Under the pieces are notes generated by a model that had not been told where the DNA came from, did no database searches, and saw nothing but the letters and a program-made list of their open reading frames with translations. The position numbers and the translations under genes were made by a program. This document shows positions 17,411 through 23,194 of a stretch of 23,292 nucleotides of DNA, in pieces. This stretch comes from a virus (taxonomy: Duplodnaviria > Heunggongvirae > Uroviricota > Caudoviricetes), in the IMG/VR virus record IMGVR_UViG_2541047850_000002, one strand, 5' to 3'. How positions within the stretch are numbered: position 1 is the stretch's first letter; each line of letters starts with the position of its first letter.

Positions 17411-17892
17411 CAGTCTCTCGCTTTTAAAAGCTCTGCCAGCGGATCAACATTATCCGGTCCGGCGGTATTTACTTTTGCCCGGCTTGCCGGTGACATACCA
17501 AATTCTGCAAGCATCGCCCGGATCCGCTTCCAGGCATCCGCTTTCATCGCAGCAGCCGGGTGTGCCTTAATCAGCACATCACCGTTCTGCGTTTCCGAGC
17601 GGTAGGTGTACCCCTCAACATCGAGTGTTTCGCAGTGATGCCGGTATTCGGTATAGGCTTCCACCAGTAGCTCAAGCGCACGCGCATCAAGCTGAGAAAT
17701 GATCCCTTCCGCATTCAGCTCTTCCGCCATTCGCCTGAACCAGTACTTCCCCTGCGCCCCTAAATGTTGCGGAATTTTAGGGAGACCTTTTTCATCCTTT
17801 TTAGCGGTTTTTTTGAGGTCTTTAACTGGCCGCTTTGAGGGGTTGCCTCGTATCAAATGCAGGCGTGGCGGGATTTTCGGGGGTCCAGACAT
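17410..17892 (-). CDS. Terminase small subunit (P27/HK97-type), 160 aa
   Basis: Basic N-terminus (PKIPPRLHLIRGNPSKRP), position immediately upstream of TerL. Confidence 0.8.
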   Translation of the reverse strand: MSGPPKIPPRLHLIRGNPSKRPVKDLKKTAKKDEKGLPKIPQHLGAQGKYWFRRMAEELNAEGIISQLDARALELLVEAYTEYRHHCETLDVEGYTYRSETQNGDVLIKAHPAAAMKADAWKRIRAMLAEFGMSPASRAKVNTAGPDNVDPLAELLKARD

Positions 17893-18039
17893 AATCGGTT
17901 TTACCTATCAATCATTTAATCACATTCCAAAAAAAAGTTTTCGAACCTGCGGCGATGCGAGGAAAGGTCAGGCGGCGGTACTGAGCAGCCAGGGTTGCAG
18001 AGATTTGACCCGCCCCTCCCCTACAGATGGGAACTGTTA
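17893..18039 (-). other. HNH-TerS intergenic region; probable location of cos (cohesive end / terminase recognition site)
   Basis: Inference from HK97-like genome organisation (HNH gene - cos - TerS); region contains GC-rich GGCGGCGG and GGGGAGGGGCGGG tracts. Exact cos not identifiable without comparison. Confidence 0.3.
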
Positions 18040-18390
18040 TCAATTGATGCGTTCGCGCGCTGTTTTTGCTTTATGACAGGGCCAGCACAGACTCTGCAGG
18101 TTACTGTCTGCATCTGTGCCACCATGAGCTTTCGGAATGATGTGGTCCACAGTTCTGGCTTCAACGGCTCTCCCATTGCGCAGGCAGTTCTGACACAGAT
18201 GATTATCACGCTTCAGTATGCGCGCACGTATGGCATCCCATTTCGAGCCATAGCCACGCTGGTGGCGGCTCAGTCCGCGTTGATGCTGTACCCATCCTTC
18301 GCCACGATGTTTATCGCAGTAACCAGAACTGTCTGTGGTTGTACCTGCACATCCACGCTTACGGCAGGCGCGTGGGATTAGTGCTGGCAT
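18040..18390 (-). CDS. HNH endonuclease (terminase-associated), 116 aa
   Basis: Cys-rich zinc-finger plus HNH motif (VDHIIPKAHGGTDADSNLQSLCWPCH); position immediately upstream of cos/TerS as in HK97 gp74. Confidence 0.88.
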   Translation of the reverse strand: MPALIPRACRKRGCAGTTTDSSGYCDKHRGEGWVQHQRGLSRHQRGYGSKWDAIRARILKRDNHLCQNCLRNGRAVEARTVDHIIPKAHGGTDADSNLQSLCWPCHKAKTARERIN

Positions 18391-18528
18391 GTTTCGCCCT
18401 TATATAAATCAAAGGTGACCTGCATTGAGTATCTCCATGGAATAGATTTGCTGCTGATATGAGACAGATCAATAGACTTCATGAGCCAACGGGTGTAGAT
18501 ATTACTTTTTACTTCAGAGGGTTAACTC

Positions 18529-19068
18529 ATGGATATTAAAGATAAAATCAATACCATTTTGTTATGTGACATTGCCATCCACCTAGGTATCGAAACTGAT
18601 ATTGATCCACAGCTTGTTAAATATGCTGTGTCATCTGGTAATGATTGGGTTATCAAGGCCGAATATTCACATTTGGATGTTGACGAACCAAGTAAAGAAG
18701 ATCGTGATTTTGTTACTGCTGTCTTGAATATGTATCGCGGACTTTCCAATGCTTTCAGGAAACTTAGTGATGACGAGCAAAAAGAATTAGTCCGTGACCA
18801 TCATCTAAAAATACATGATGGGGCAATTCAGCTCCCAGGTTTCGACGGTAATAATGAATGCGATTACTTCAGTATCATTGAGGCATATCAGAAAATTGAT
18901 CGCTTCCCCGAACAGAAACAGCCCATTGCCAATACTCATTCACGTACAGAACATCTCTATAACGCAATGCTTGATGAGTTTAAGAAAATTGACGCTGTAA
19001 ATCGAAGCTGGGATTTATCGAAGGAAGAACTGGCATCCATTCTTTCCACAGCTCCACGCAGTTTCTAA
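18529..19068 (+). CDS. Opposite-strand AT-rich moron gene, 179 aa; resembles YfbU/UPF0304 family by recalled motif pattern (function unknown)
   Basis: Only convincing + strand gene in the window; GAGGG SD 8 nt upstream of ATG; visibly AT-rich versus flanks; motif similarity to E. coli YfbU (LPGFDGNNECDYFSIIEAY vs FLGFDAATEARYLGYVRF; VLNMYRGL vs IMEMYHAL) is from memory, not a search. Confidence 0.6.
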   Translation: MDIKDKINTILLCDIAIHLGIETDIDPQLVKYAVSSGNDWVIKAEYSHLDVDEPSKEDRDFVTAVLNMYRGLSNAFRKLSDDEQKELVRDHHLKIHDGAIQLPGFDGNNECDYFSIIEAYQKIDRFPEQKQPIANTHSRTEHLYNAMLDEFKKIDAVNRSWDLSKEELASILSTAPRSF

Positions 19069-19073
19069 GTGCT

Positions 19074-19340
19074 TTAGGCGGGTTTCCAACCCGCCTTATT
19101 ATGCTCGTATATAGAGAAGGAAGCACCCAAATTAACCAGCGCGGATTTCTTTTCCTCAATACGGCTGTTAAGTTCAGCAACTGCATGCGGGCGTATGGCC
19201 TCAAGAAAAGCACTATATTGATAGGCAGACTGGATTGTCACACCAAGCCCTGCACCACTTTCCAGTATACCTTTCTGTCGCTGTAGCTCTTTCATCTCGT
19301 TATAGATGTAATGTGCGTTACTTAGGTTTTCTACGTTCAC
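19074..19340 (-). CDS. Hypothetical protein, 88 aa (MNVENLSNAHYIYNEMKELQRQKGILESG...), convergent with the YfbU-like gene
   Basis: GTG start with AGGAAG SD; C-terminal 7 codons (KAGWKPA) are encoded by the terminator hairpin; no family recognised. Confidence 0.45.
   Translation of the reverse strand: MNVENLSNAHYIYNEMKELQRQKGILESGAGLGVTIQSAYQYSAFLEAIRPHAVAELNSRIEEKKSALVNLGASFSIYEHNKAGWKPA
19076..19096. terminator. Bidirectional intrinsic terminator hairpin (AGGCGGGTT-TCCA-ACCCGCCT) between convergent genes
   Basis: Seen in sequence: perfect 8-9 bp GC-rich stem; T-rich on + strand after stem (TTATTAT) and A/T-rich on minus. Confidence 0.5.
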
Positions 19341-19495
19341 GCCCTAAGTTCTTCCTGCAGTTAGCCTGCACTGATTTGTTATGCGCCAATATGTCCCGCT
19401 TCGTCTGTTGCATTATCATAAGTAATAGCGTAGGTTGACACCTTGGCTCTCTTTCGCCACCGGCGAATCTTTAGCGGATTATCCTTGGCCGGTTT

Positions 19496-19963
19496 TTATC
19501 TGAGACATTGCTCACGAATGTATAGCTGTGCCCCTTCCAGTTGCTTCTGCATCGTCATCAACCGTTCTCTGAGGGTGAAATAATCCCGTTCAGCGGTGTC
19601 TGCCAGTCTGGGGCTGGTTGCATTATCCACGCTGGTGGGTCCGGTGGCTTCACGCACGGCTGCGGAGCAACTGGCATTGACCCGCAGGCGCTTACGACCA
19701 GCGGCAACATCAGCGCGCAGAGTTTCATTTTCAGCTTTCGCATTGGCTAATTCTCTCGAGTACTTTGCATCGAGCGCAGCAACATCACGCTGACGCTGTT
19801 GCATGTCAGCGATGGTGGCAGTCGCCTGCTTCAGCTCACTGACTTTTTTATCACGCTGTTCTTTGTAGGCGATGGCGTTATCACGGTAATGATTCAGCCC
19901 CAGACTAAGCGCACCACAGGCCACCAGCAGGGCAATGATGACCACGCACAGTACGCGGTTCAT
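19496..19963 (-). CDS. Rz: Spanin inner-membrane subunit Rz (i-spanin), 155 aa
   Basis: N-terminal TM helix (VLCVVIIALLVACGALSL), coiled-coil body, embedded Rz1 in +1 frame; downstream of endolysin. Confidence 0.88.
   Translation of the reverse strand: MNRVLCVVIIALLVACGALSLGLNHYRDNAIAYKEQRDKKVSELKQATATIADMQQRQRDVAALDAKYSRELANAKAENETLRADVAAGRKRLRVNASCSAAVREATGPTSVDNATSPRLADTAERDYFTLRERLMTMQKQLEGAQLYIREQCLR
19558..19743 (-). CDS. Rz1: Spanin outer-membrane lipoprotein subunit Rz1 (o-spanin), embedded in Rz; likely start at MKLCALML (19728)
   Basis: Lipobox LVVSAC, proline-rich mature region (PQPCVKPPDPPAW), entirely within Rz in a different frame. Confidence 0.75.
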   Translation of the reverse strand: MRKLKMKLCALMLPLVVSACGSMPVAPQPCVKPPDPPAWIMQPAPDWQTPLNGIISPSENG

Positions 19964-19964
19964 T

Positions 19965-20063
19965 TCACCACCAGCGTATCTGACCGATGAAATAACCGGA
20001 GGCCATAATCACAAACACCAGCCAGATAAGAATGAACTTCCAGGTGGATAATTTTTCAGCCAT
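19965..20063 (-). CDS. Tiny ORF (32 aa from ATG, MAEKLSTWKFILIWLVFVIMASGYFIGQIRWW; up to 45 aa from upstream GTG at 20102) with one TM-like helix, stop 1 nt before Rz ATG
   Basis: Hand-translated from minus strand; TGA stop at 19967..19965 then A then Rz ATG (translational coupling geometry); AGGAG lies 3 nt upstream of the GTG at 20102 (tight spacing). Confidence 0.3.
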   Translation of the reverse strand: MAEKLSTWKFILIWLVFVIMASGYFIGQIRWW

Positions 20064-20140
20064 CACTCGAATATCCCGAATCAGTTTGCTAAAATCAAAC
20101 ACACTTTCTCCTTTGACTTTTCCGGAGTCAGGAAACACAA

Positions 20141-20169
20141 AACCCCGCTTGGTGCCAACAAACGGGGTT
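20141..20169. terminator. Bidirectional terminator-like hairpin (AACCCCG...CGGGGTT) in endolysin-Rz gap
   Basis: Seen in sequence: + strand AAAACCCCGCTTGGTGCCAACAAACGGGGTTTTTACTTTTATT; T-rich on both sides. Confidence 0.4.
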
Positions 20170-20261
20170 TTTACTTTTATTCACTTACGTTTCGCCAGTT
20201 CGCAGGATTTCATGTTATCCGCCCGCGTGGCCATGCCTTATTTTTCAGCAAAATATTCTGC

Positions 20262-21600: not shown

Positions 21601-21630
21601 AAAAAGGCCCCAACACATGTGCGTGGGGCC
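21601..21630 (-). terminator. Intrinsic terminator oriented for minus strand (GGCCCCA...TGGGGCC + T5), back-to-back with the + strand terminator
   Basis: Seen in sequence: minus strand GGCCCCACGCACATGTGTTGGGGCCTTTTT. Confidence 0.45.
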
Positions 21631-21830
21631 TGAGAGTATACATGGTTTCAGTCAACTGCATGGTGCCGGGTGCCTCCCGGTGAATTCAGTACCAGCACCT
21701 GAATCCGCGATTATCCCATATACCTACTCGCTGATTGCCCCTCCGCACAGGGGGATTCACCATGCCAGTTTCTTTTAACAAACTCCCCGCAAAACAGACA
21801 ACTGTCAACCGTCTGAATTGTGAGACATTT

Positions 21831-21870: not shown

Positions 21871-21947
21871 TGGCGCGTTGTACTGGATTCGAACCAGTGA
21901 CCGATTGCTTAGAAGGCAATTGCTCTGTCCGGTTGAGCTAACAACGC
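21871..21947 (-). tRNA. tRNA-Arg (anticodon UCU), CCA encoded, 77 nt
   Basis: Hand-folded cloverleaf: acceptor GCGTTGT/ACAACGC, D-arm GCTC/GAGC, anticodon stem ATTGC/GCAAT with loop CTTCTAA, T-arm ACTGG-TTCGAAT-CCAGT, discriminator G, CCA. Confidence 0.85.
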
Positions 21948-21960
21948 AGGGTACAGATAA

Positions 21961-22037
21961 TGGACCGCCATCGAGGACTCGAACCCCGCGCAACCAGCTT
22001 CGAAGGCTGGTGCTCTATCCTGATGAGCTAATGGCGG
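21961..22037 (-). tRNA. tRNA-Arg (anticodon read as UCG), CCA encoded, 77 nt; atypical C1-G72 acceptor pair
   Basis: Hand-folded: acceptor CCGCCAT/ATGGCGG, D-arm GCTC/GAGC, anticodon stem CCAGC/GCTGG with loop CTTCGAA, T-loop TTCGAGT; anticodon assignment by hand only. Confidence 0.7.
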
Positions 22038-22044
22038 TATGTGA

Positions 22045-22120
22045 TGGTGGCCCTTGCTGGATTTGAACCAGCGACCTGGCGATTATGAGTCGCTCGCTCT
22101 CACCACTGAGCTAAAAGGCC
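22045..22120 (-). tRNA. tRNA-Ile2-like (anticodon CAU, lysidine-type) or tRNA-Met; ileZ/ileX-like, 76 nt
   Basis: Hand-folded; sequence GGCCTTTTAGCTCAGTGGTGAGAGCGAGCGACTCATAATCGC...GGTTCAAATCCAGCAAGGGCCACCA closely resembles E. coli ileX as I recall it. Confidence 0.8.
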
Positions 22121-22954: not shown

Positions 22955-23194
22955 CTAACACCCACCAGCCGCCCATTTACCACAAATAAAAAAGCCTTCA
23001 GGACTGAAGGCGTCTGTAACAACCGAACTGATAGTCTGCCAGACCCGCATAACCAGCTGGGTCAGTATTAACTGGCAGCGCTCGCGTGAAAGGTACGTAT
23101 TCTGCGCAATCTCCCCGACCGTCGCCGGTTCGGTGACGCTTAATTCATCAAACACAACTCTGGCGGTTTCTGTCATATCCTGCTGTTTTAGCAT
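22955..23194 (-). CDS. Small ORF (79 aa from ATG 23194, MLKQQDMTETARVVFDELSVTEPATVGEIAQNTYLSRERCQLILTQLV...) with HTH-like motif; alternatively a non-coding leader/terminator region
   Basis: HTH-like segment ATVGEIAQNTYLSRERCQLIL; but a strong terminator-like hairpin lies inside the 3' end of the ORF ~40 nt before the stop, which argues against full-length translation. Confidence 0.35.
   Translation of the reverse strand: MLKQQDMTETARVVFDELSVTEPATVGEIAQNTYLSRERCQLILTQLVMRVWQTISSVVTDAFSPEGFFICGKWAAGGC
22986..23011 (-). terminator. Intrinsic terminator-like hairpin (GCCTTCAG...CTGAAGGC + T6)
   Basis: Seen in sequence: minus strand GACGCCTTCAGTCCTGAAGGCTTTTTTATTTG; could be tR'-like terminator of a short leader transcript. 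Confidence 0.4.

Follow-up and report, generated by a model that had tools for sequence, protein, structure and literature searches.

In the present study, we analyzed a 23.3-kb stretch of viral DNA (IMG/VR record IMGVR_UViG_2541047850_000002, 23,292 nucleotides; hereafter the window), which represents the late region of an Escherichia coli prophage of the HK97-like lambdoid type. We focused on the 1105-base-pair (bp) segment at 18391-19495, between the packaging genes and the lysis genes. The results indicated that positions 18391-19113 form an autonomous moron with a single gene, which encodes a YfbU-like protein of 179 amino acids (aa), and that the neighboring open reading frame (ORF) of 88 aa belongs to another mosaic module, 19114-19409, as its last gene. 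We hold this assignment with high confidence. With regard to function, the YfbU-like protein may be expressed from the repressed prophage and may protect the lysogen as a single-gene abortive-infection factor, with the lactococcal plasmid system Kamadhenu as the model. We consider this functional proposal tentative, slightly short of an even balance. The explanation as a whole, an autonomous YfbU moron that confers Kamadhenu-like prophage defence, appears to us evenly poised between right and wrong.

Sequence and structural analysis of the YfbU-like protein

The 179-aa protein was assigned by profile and fold comparisons. It matched the Pfam family PF03887 (YfbU/UPF0304) over residues 46-172 with a score of 46.3 bits, against a cut-off of 25, and it matched phrog_6084 with an expectation value (E) of 8e-83. 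The identical RefSeq protein, WP_000351660.1, carries the name "YfbU family protein". The AlphaFold2 model, based on 29 homologues, was almost entirely helical and reached a predicted local distance difference test (pLDDT) value of 90.5. Using this model, a Foldseek search of the PDB retrieved the E. coli YfbU structures 4LR3 and 1WPB with a probability of 1.0 and a template modeling (TM) score of 0.67-0.74 over 177 aligned columns at 15% identity, and no fold besides the YfbU structures was found in the PDB at E < 1. Alignment with hhalign gave a probability of 96% to YfbU of E. coli K-12 and of 98% to a YfbU-family protein from an Enterococcus plasmid. The first-pass annotation of this DNA, which had been made from the sequence alone, had called the protein YfbU/UPF0304-like, and the Pfam score, the RefSeq name and the predicted fold all bear this out.

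The distance from chromosomal YfbU was considerable. The score against the NCBIfam model of the chromosomal equivalog (NF003936) was 34.8 bits, against a cut-off of 90, and a phmmer search of the PDB sequences with the 179-aa protein found nothing, YfbU included. The gene lies in a prophage and not in the hxpA-yfbU-yfbV context. Because Pfam and fold matched but the equivalog score was far below its cut-off and the identity was about 15%, the protein is a divergent representative of the YfbU superfamily rather than an orthologue of chromosomal yfbU. The two proteins share the Pfam family, the full-length fold and a similar motif, which reads GFDGNNE in the prophage protein and GFDAATE in chromosomal YfbU (b2294), whereas H137 of the prophage subfamily aligns to a Gln. 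They also differ in their setting, since chromosomal yfbU belongs to a core housekeeping locus and the gene of the window is prophage cargo.

Within the prophage subfamily, C13, W40, G104, F105, D106, N109, E110, H137, and Y144 were invariant. The full length of 179-180 aa was kept across homologues from 100% down to about 50% identity, and the ratio of nonsynonymous to synonymous substitution rates (dN/dS) against relatives was 0.07-0.13, indicating strong purifying selection. An exhaustive profile search yielded 2118 cluster representatives at E <= 1e-3, of which 48 had E <= 1e-30, and a fold search of BFVD returned one viral protein of the same fold and nothing informative. A kinship of residues 38-147 with the Cfr10I/Bse634I restriction endonucleases was also considered; the match (18.4 bits) was below the cut-off of 27 and the predicted fold was almost entirely helical, so it was taken as a chance match.

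Breakpoints, position and distribution of the moron

The limits of the moron were derived from related prophages with and without the gene. Compared with the prophage of E. coli C7 (locus L007), which lacks the module, homology stopped at 18390 and resumed at 19114-19409. Compared with the more distant YfbU-bearing prophages L136, L141, and L137, homology ended at the stop codon of the YfbU-like gene, at 19068. Citrobacter phage Chris1 matched only 19114-19407, and the stretch 19114-19409 was 86-88% identical to Chris1 and to the C7 prophage over exactly that span. The C7 prophage carried homologous HNH and 76-aa genes with a different gene of 187 aa between them. This 187-aa cargo gene (L007, 2359-2922, minus strand) occupies the slot of the YfbU-like gene in the late-operon orientation, and its product matched no family of Pfam or PADLOC.

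The G+C content was 0.391 for the YfbU-like ORF and 0.396 for the module, compared with 0.453 for the 88-aa ORF and 0.52 for the window. The 540-bp interval with the lowest G+C content in the whole sequence began at 18401, and 0.7% of such intervals were equally low. The whole segment had been described as visibly AT-rich; this holds for the YfbU module, while the 88-aa ORF is less extreme.

The position of the gene was highly regular. In 64 of the 64 loci with a homologue at >=45% identity, its start pointed towards the terminase or HNH gene and its stop towards the lysis genes, on the strand opposite to both. The same slot and orientation were found in 27 of 30 more distant loci with recognizable markers. 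The slot was constant across at least four terminase types (including P27+HNH, GpA+DUF1441, and GpA+Nu1) and across lysis cassettes of the lambda, GH19, and P2 types. Identical YfbU modules were observed in different mosaic backgrounds, with other portal and lysis genes, and no neighboring gene was conserved across the YfbU-like homologues. Of 5426 complete E. coli genomes, 225 carried the gene, without exception on the chromosome. Copies of the 1105-bp segment with 100% identity occurred in the prophages of many other strains, and the strains carrying the segment or the gene were mostly human and animal clinical or commensal isolates.

These results indicated that the module has the features of a moron, namely presence or absence between homologous flanks, a deviant composition, a terminator of its own (described below), and an orientation opposite to the surrounding operon. 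The segment had been described as a horizontally mobile moron, rich in AT, that lies on the opposite strand between the lysis and packaging genes; for 18391-19113, this was supported by the breakpoints, the G+C content, and the constant position. This slot and orientation are those of lambda bor. Bor is an outer-membrane lipoprotein and a host-fitness gene product of lambda, whereas the 179-aa YfbU-like protein is predicted to be soluble and helical. The two have no sequence or structural relation, and the Pfam scan of the 179-aa protein gave only YfbU. The likeness to bor, and to the moron concept of Hendrix and co-workers, therefore lies in the architecture: a slot between Rz and the packaging genes, an orientation opposite to late transcription, and an autonomous unit with its own terminator and deviant composition that is present in some related phages and absent from others.

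Candidate function of the YfbU-like protein

The first-pass annotation had proposed an undescribed accessory system, with superinfection exclusion or abortive infection as examples. A defence or exclusion role was a reasonable guess, but the kind of system is no longer undescribed, because Grafakou et al. (2024, PMC11381338) have published Kamadhenu, a single-gene abortive-infection system with a YfbU domain. This lactococcal plasmid system (pUCCL624_130, BioProject PRJNA1086404) consists of one gene for a protein of 180 aa with the YfbU fold, which is sufficient alone (PMC11381338). A point mutation in a Sak-like single-strand annealing protein allows phages to evade it (Mosterd et al. 2025, PMC12184496), and the system has no effect on phage DNA replication, transcription or translation (PMC13064643). 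Chromosomal yfbU itself has been described as a "death gene" that is required for mazEF-dependent death after DNA damage (PMC2646832).

The window protein resembles Kamadhenu in its single-gene architecture, its size of about 180 aa, its Pfam family, its two-domain helical YfbU fold, and its status as mobile-element cargo. The two differ in their carriers, a Gram-positive plasmid in the one case and an enterobacterial prophage in the other, and the antiphage phenotype and the escape through the annealing protein are established for Kamadhenu only. Genes of the YfbU family were common on plasmids, with at least 146 Enterococcus plasmids carrying one. In a Superficieibacter prophage (L010, 6990-8488; also L011 and L140), a PP2C phosphatase gene and a Ser/Thr kinase gene lay between the YfbU-like gene and Rz, and the kinase matched the PADLOC model PD-T4-6 with E = 3.6e-30. 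The lysis-packaging junction thus acts as a hotspot for defence cargo. The neighbors of distant YfbU homologues included integrases, transposases, and matches to the TIR and PDC-S15 defence models. A prophage-encoded defence of the Kamadhenu kind was favored because the Kamadhenu literature, the kinase in the slot, the abundance on plasmids, and the neighboring genes point in the same direction.

Under this proposal, the YfbU-like protein would be expressed from the repressed prophage. By analogy with Kamadhenu, it would sense the recombination machinery of an incoming phage, or the products of that machinery, and would then halt the infection at a late stage. The conserved patch formed by GFDGNNE, H137, and Y144 would be the likely functional site. 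When the resident prophage goes lytic, strong Q-antiterminated late transcription, which converges on the gene, might silence it.

Several observations weigh against the defence proposal. Scans of 18391-18528 with consensus and relaxed sigma-70 models found no convincing promoter, and expression in the lysogen is for this reason only assumed. The weak sigma-70-like matches in this region (7-8 of 12 positions, with spacers of 19 nucleotides (nt)) were TTGCTG-19-TAGACT at 18448-18478 and TAGACT-19-GATATT at 18473-18503, and the window shares an upstream block, ATCAAnAGTGACCTGCAT, with the Superficieibacter homologue despite a different upstream gene. The likeness to Kamadhenu rests on the Pfam family, the fold, the size, and the single-gene architecture and not on a direct alignment; no Lactococcus protein was retrieved by tblastn searches of plasmids with the window and Enterococcus YfbU queries, by a protein search seeded with the Enterococcus sequence, or by a look-up of cluster representatives of 180 aa. 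The association of distant homologues with defence genes was modest and had no baseline for comparison. Furthermore, the YfbU fold has no known biochemical activity, chromosomal YfbU being known only through the mazEF-dependent death (PMC2646832). Neither the 179-aa nor the 88-aa protein matched any model of PADLOC-DB v2.0.0 at E <= 1; this can also be counted against the proposal, although it is uninformative because that release, from 2023, predates Kamadhenu. A literature search by accession or PHROG number found no papers.

Two other functions were weighed against defence. The first, which we consider rather improbable, is that the protein serves the phage itself, either as an anti-defence or host-takeover factor expressed on entry or as a modulator of the host's DNA-damage death around induction. 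In lambda, the right end of the genome enters the cell first. The YfbU-like gene points inward from the right end of the packaged genome, adjacent to cos, so that it would enter first and could be expressed at once. The position beside the packaging site was kept in all 64 loci, and in two distant prophages, of Megasphaera and Pseudomonas, a homologue lay immediately before the terminase gene and ran in its direction. On the other hand, members of the family are often found on plasmids and outside phages, and an orientation opposite to all lytic transcription units of the phage is typical of genes expressed from a repressed prophage. Chromosomal YfbU has been implicated in death after DNA damage (PMC2646832), the signal that induces lambdoid prophages, yet the only YfbU-domain protein with a tested phenotype on a mobile element acts as a defence.

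The second alternative, less probable still, is a lysogenic conversion unrelated to phages, in which an additional diverged YfbU paralogue alters the stress physiology of the host (DNA damage, acid or other) and thereby benefits the lysogen. The moron architecture and the slot match those of bor, the host-fitness gene of lambda, the host strains are mostly clinical or commensal isolates, and yfbU appears, judging by their titles, in several stress-response transcriptome and evolution studies. However, simple dosage or redundancy is unlikely because of the low identity to chromosomal YfbU and the failed equivalog cut-off, and cargo slots in phages and plasmids together with the association with defence genes fit conflict functions better.

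The Kamadhenu-like defence proposal can be extended to the family. In its widest form, the YfbU-like proteins would be widespread, position-locked, single-gene abortive-infection sensors of enterobacterial lambdoid prophages, akin to Kamadhenu in mechanism, triggered by the recombinases of incoming phages and shut off by convergent late transcription. We regard this wider version as speculative and rather doubtful.

Relationship between the YfbU-like gene and the 88-aa ORF

The 88-aa ORF had been listed as belonging to no recognizable family. A match to phrog_5415 corrected this (E = 2e-38), since residues 1-76 aligned with profile positions 1-76 of 76, the full length of the family. A protein search with the 88-aa ORF yielded 276 clusters, nearly all of 76 aa, in prophages of Citrobacter, Salmonella, Klebsiella, and E. 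coli, and tblastn also found the family in virulent phages of Klebsiella, Salmonella, Escherichia, and Erwinia. The GTG start was supported by a homologue in a Klebsiella phage, which has ATG at the same aligned codon. The dN/dS was 0.27-0.32. The model of the protein was a simple helical hairpin, and a search with it found no PDB match at E <= 0.001. These results indicated that the 88-aa ORF is a real gene and a member of a phage family of unknown function.

The genomic position of this family was consistent. In Citrobacter phage Chris1, Klebsiella phage ST101-KPC2phi6.3, and the E. coli C7 prophage, the 76-aa-family gene is the last gene of a lysis cassette composed of two holin genes, a GH19 endolysin gene, and genes for a transmembrane protein and a small Cys-containing protein. 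All three copies share the orientation of the late operon and an overlap with the small ORF before them, and none has a YfbU gene in its vicinity. The 88-aa ORF corresponds to this family in its full-length match, its position after the spanin genes in GH19-type cassettes, and its late-operon orientation. It differs in a C-terminal extension of 12 aa and in the loss of the complete overlapping ORF upstream. A 33-aa remnant of that ORF (19318-19419) marks an old recombination joint of two kinds of lysis cassette at about 19410. The complete ORF in GH19-type cassettes encodes 68 aa including Cys and overlaps both a gene for an N-terminally anchored protein of 89 aa and the start of the 76-aa-family gene. 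In the prophage of E. coli STE15 (L009, 3700-4858), the 76-aa-family gene occurs twice, once intact and once interrupted by an internal stop, and the copies flank an Rz1 gene next to a GH19 cassette; this locus was thus read as a hybrid of two lysis cassettes.

The first-pass annotation had treated the YfbU-like gene and the 88-aa ORF as a two-gene cassette and had proposed a check of their co-occurrence in other genomes. We searched 176 loci with YfbU-like relatives, taken from prophage and viral contigs and from genomes, for the 88-aa family. It was present in 39 of 39 loci in which the YfbU-like protein was >=88% identical, all of them closely related E. coli prophages, but in none of the 25 loci at 45-87% identity and none of the 110 loci below 45%. 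A partner gene is therefore not kept beside the divergent homologues, and the co-occurrence at high identity reflects recent linkage, not functional coupling. The 88-aa family also occurred without any YfbU gene in phages of Citrobacter, Klebsiella, Salmonella, and Erwinia and in other E. coli prophages. Moreover, the 88-aa ORF was broken by premature stops, through three different lesions, in 8 of 40 YfbU-bearing loci, and RefSeq marks some of these copies as "internal stop"; the YfbU-like ORF was intact in all.

The proximity of the two genes was confirmed. Their stop codons (19066-19068 and 19074-19076) are separated by 5 bp, as had been reported, and a hairpin at 19076-19096 covers the last seven codons of the 88-aa ORF. 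The genes are convergent and not co-transcribed. In relatives with YfbU-like genes of 92-94% identity, the 76-aa-family gene has its normal end, "...SFS*", at 76 aa, and the hairpin lies in non-coding DNA. In the lineage of the window this stop has been lost, and the frame continues for another 12 codons (IYEHNKAGWKPA) until it meets a stop within the hairpin. The overlap between the ORF and the hairpin is thus explained by a lineage-specific read-through.

It can be asked whether the two genes nevertheless form a two-gene accessory system, of a toxin-antitoxin-like or sensor-effector kind, coupled through the shared hairpin. Their adjacency, the overlapping hairpin, and the constant co-occurrence among the closest relatives would fit such a system. 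As judged from the comparative data, it is largely refuted and, in our view, very improbable: the 88-aa family was absent from all 135 loci below 88% identity, it is far more widespread alone, virulent phages included, its copy beside an intact YfbU-like gene was repeatedly disrupted, and the two convergent genes lie on separate mosaic modules.

Assignment of the terminator hairpin

The hairpin has a perfect 9-bp stem and a loop of 3 nt, with a folding energy of about -15 kcal/mol and a z-score of -2.7 to -3.0 against shuffled sequences; a perfect GC hairpin that encodes the end of the 88-aa ORF, as first described, was thus confirmed. It had also been described as a bidirectional terminator shared by both genes, and this did not hold. 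The tail was moderately U-rich on the plus strand (UAUUAUG) and read AAAGCAC on the minus strand, and a consensus terminator scan called the hairpin on neither strand, so a bidirectional function is unsupported. The stem pairs were kept by compensatory changes, in which TT/AA was replaced by G/C in L128 and by AA/TT in L136 and L141. This covariation was seen in homologues down to 78% identity, including loci that lack the 88-aa gene, where the tail was more U-rich (TCTTTTCATTT in L136). Every divergent homologue examined had its own unrelated hairpin just past the stop codon. Since the stem covaries and persists where the 88-aa gene is absent, the hairpin is the YfbU-like gene's own terminator. 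An Rfam scan of 17800-20200 gave no significant RNA element.

The covarying terminator, together with the strong purifying selection, the conserved length, and the invariant residues, leaves hardly any plausibility to the idea that the YfbU-like ORF is a decaying or selfish functionless remnant, which only the missing promoter and possible silencing of AT-rich DNA would suggest.

Features of the segment and of the surrounding window

The features of the segment and its flanks are collected in Table 1. The window is 99.9% identical to the prophage of E. coli B2.3. On the minus strand, the genes follow the order regulator, three tRNA genes, holin, YdfR, lysozyme, Rz/Rz1, and 88-aa ORF; after the plus-strand YfbU-family gene, the order continues with the HNH endonuclease, the P27-family small terminase, the large terminase, the portal, and the head and tail genes to gpJ. 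In the annotation of the 99.9% identical record, the YfbU-family gene is the sole intact plus-strand coding sequence, in agreement with its description as the only plus-strand gene in the window.

Table 1. Coordinates of the YfbU-like moron, the adjoining mosaic module, and the flanking genes in the window.
Feature	Position	Strand	Evidence or remarks
YfbU-like moron module (upstream region, gene, and terminator hairpin)	18391-19113	+	Mosaic breakpoints, G+C content 0.396; exchanged as a unit
Divergent intergenic region, 138 bp, from HNH start to YfbU-like start	18391-18528	+	Ribosome-binding site AGAGGG at 18516-18521, 7 nt before the ATG
YfbU-family gene, 179 aa (WP_000351660.1); candidate Kamadhenu-type single-gene defence protein	18529-19068	+	Pfam PF03887, fold
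Terminator-like hairpin of the YfbU-like gene	19076-19096	+	AGGCGGGTT-TCC-AACCCGCCT, then TATTATG; folding, covariation
88-aa ORF (WP_001100260.1), phrog_5415 plus 12-aa read-through IYEHNKAGWKPA; late-operon gene	19074-19340	-	
Mosaic module: body of the 76-aa-family gene and 3' remnant of the preceding small ORF	19114-19409	-	Common to phages with GH19-type lysis cassettes
33-aa ORF, C-terminal remnant of the 68-aa Cys-containing (o-spanin-like) ORF	19318-19419	-	
HNH endonuclease gene, packaging-side flank, divergent from the YfbU-like gene	18040-18390	-	Pfam HNH, E = 1.9e-16
Rz spanin gene with embedded Rz1 (19558-19743), lysis-side flank	19496-19963	-	Pfam Phage_lysis, E = 1.7e-49; Rz1-like lipoprotein ORF

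Further observations were made on the lysis side of the window. The lysozyme and Rz genes are separated by a spacer of 298 bp (19964-20261), while the same genes overlap in strain 4/4. On the minus strand, the spacer carries a terminator-like hairpin of 13 bp (20139-20171) and a hydrophobic ORF of 32 aa, MAEKLSTWKFILIWLVFVIMASGYFIGQIRWW (19967-20062), whose stop codon directly adjoins the start of Rz. The spacer was recovered over at least 80% of its length in 871 complete E. coli genomes and is rarely annotated. Upstream of the holin gene, the prophage carries three tRNA genes (21871-22120, minus strand): Arg-tct, Arg-tcg, and a tRNA with a CAT anticodon that was called Met by ARAGORN and Ile by RefSeq. 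The same region holds a pseudogene fragment on the plus strand (21617-21775) and a frameshifted regulator of the TrmB family on the minus strand (22998-23194). At the same place, strain 4/4 carries a different tRNA set (Gly, Thr, Lys, and Ile).

Distant relatives of the YfbU-like gene

A distant YfbU subfamily, 25-32% identical to the window protein, was observed in Pseudomonas, Psychrobacter, Marinomonas, Alteromonas, Arcobacter, and others. The YfbU gene was immediately preceded in 29 of 80 genome loci by a conserved ORF whose product has about 166 aa and a transmembrane helix at its N terminus. Examples of the two-gene unit are L034 (5465-6546), L038 (5468-6537), L056 (5469-6543), L060 (5469-6543), and L031 (5452-6534), with about 24 more, and L022 (4998-6035). 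An analogous pair occurs on Enterococcus plasmids, where the gene after the YfbU-family gene encodes a protein of 170 aa with a hydrophobic segment at its N terminus. Pfam gave no match for the 166-aa partner, and among 150 scanned neighboring proteins, the partner included, no family of Pfam or PADLOC appeared repeatedly. The membrane protein and the YfbU-like gene may constitute an undescribed two-gene module, which is perhaps the more novel lead.

The region after gene G of phage P2 is a known hotspot for cargo and defence genes. In the P2-like Yersinia phage vB_YenM_324 (L003, 3956-4534), the tail-fibre genes H and G are followed, a few genes further on, by a YfbU-like gene with the same direction of transcription. 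A classic terminator comes after this gene, whose product shares 32% identity with the window protein.

Implications

If the prophage protein acts in defence, about 4% of complete E. coli genomes would carry a prophage immunity gene that was missed by defence finders (PADLOC 2023), and the Kamadhenu/YfbU defence fold would extend from lactococcal plasmids to enterobacterial prophages. The strict location and the convergent orientation of the gene suggest a simple way in which a prophage could silence its own abortive-infection gene on induction. Such a role would also offer a tractable E. coli/lambda setting for the role of the YfbU fold, a question that dates from the structure of 2004 and the "death gene" report of 2009. 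If the wider proposal for the family is true, the whole YfbU fold would be an immune module, including the "death gene" yfbU and the two-gene version of Proteobacteria and Enterococcus plasmids.

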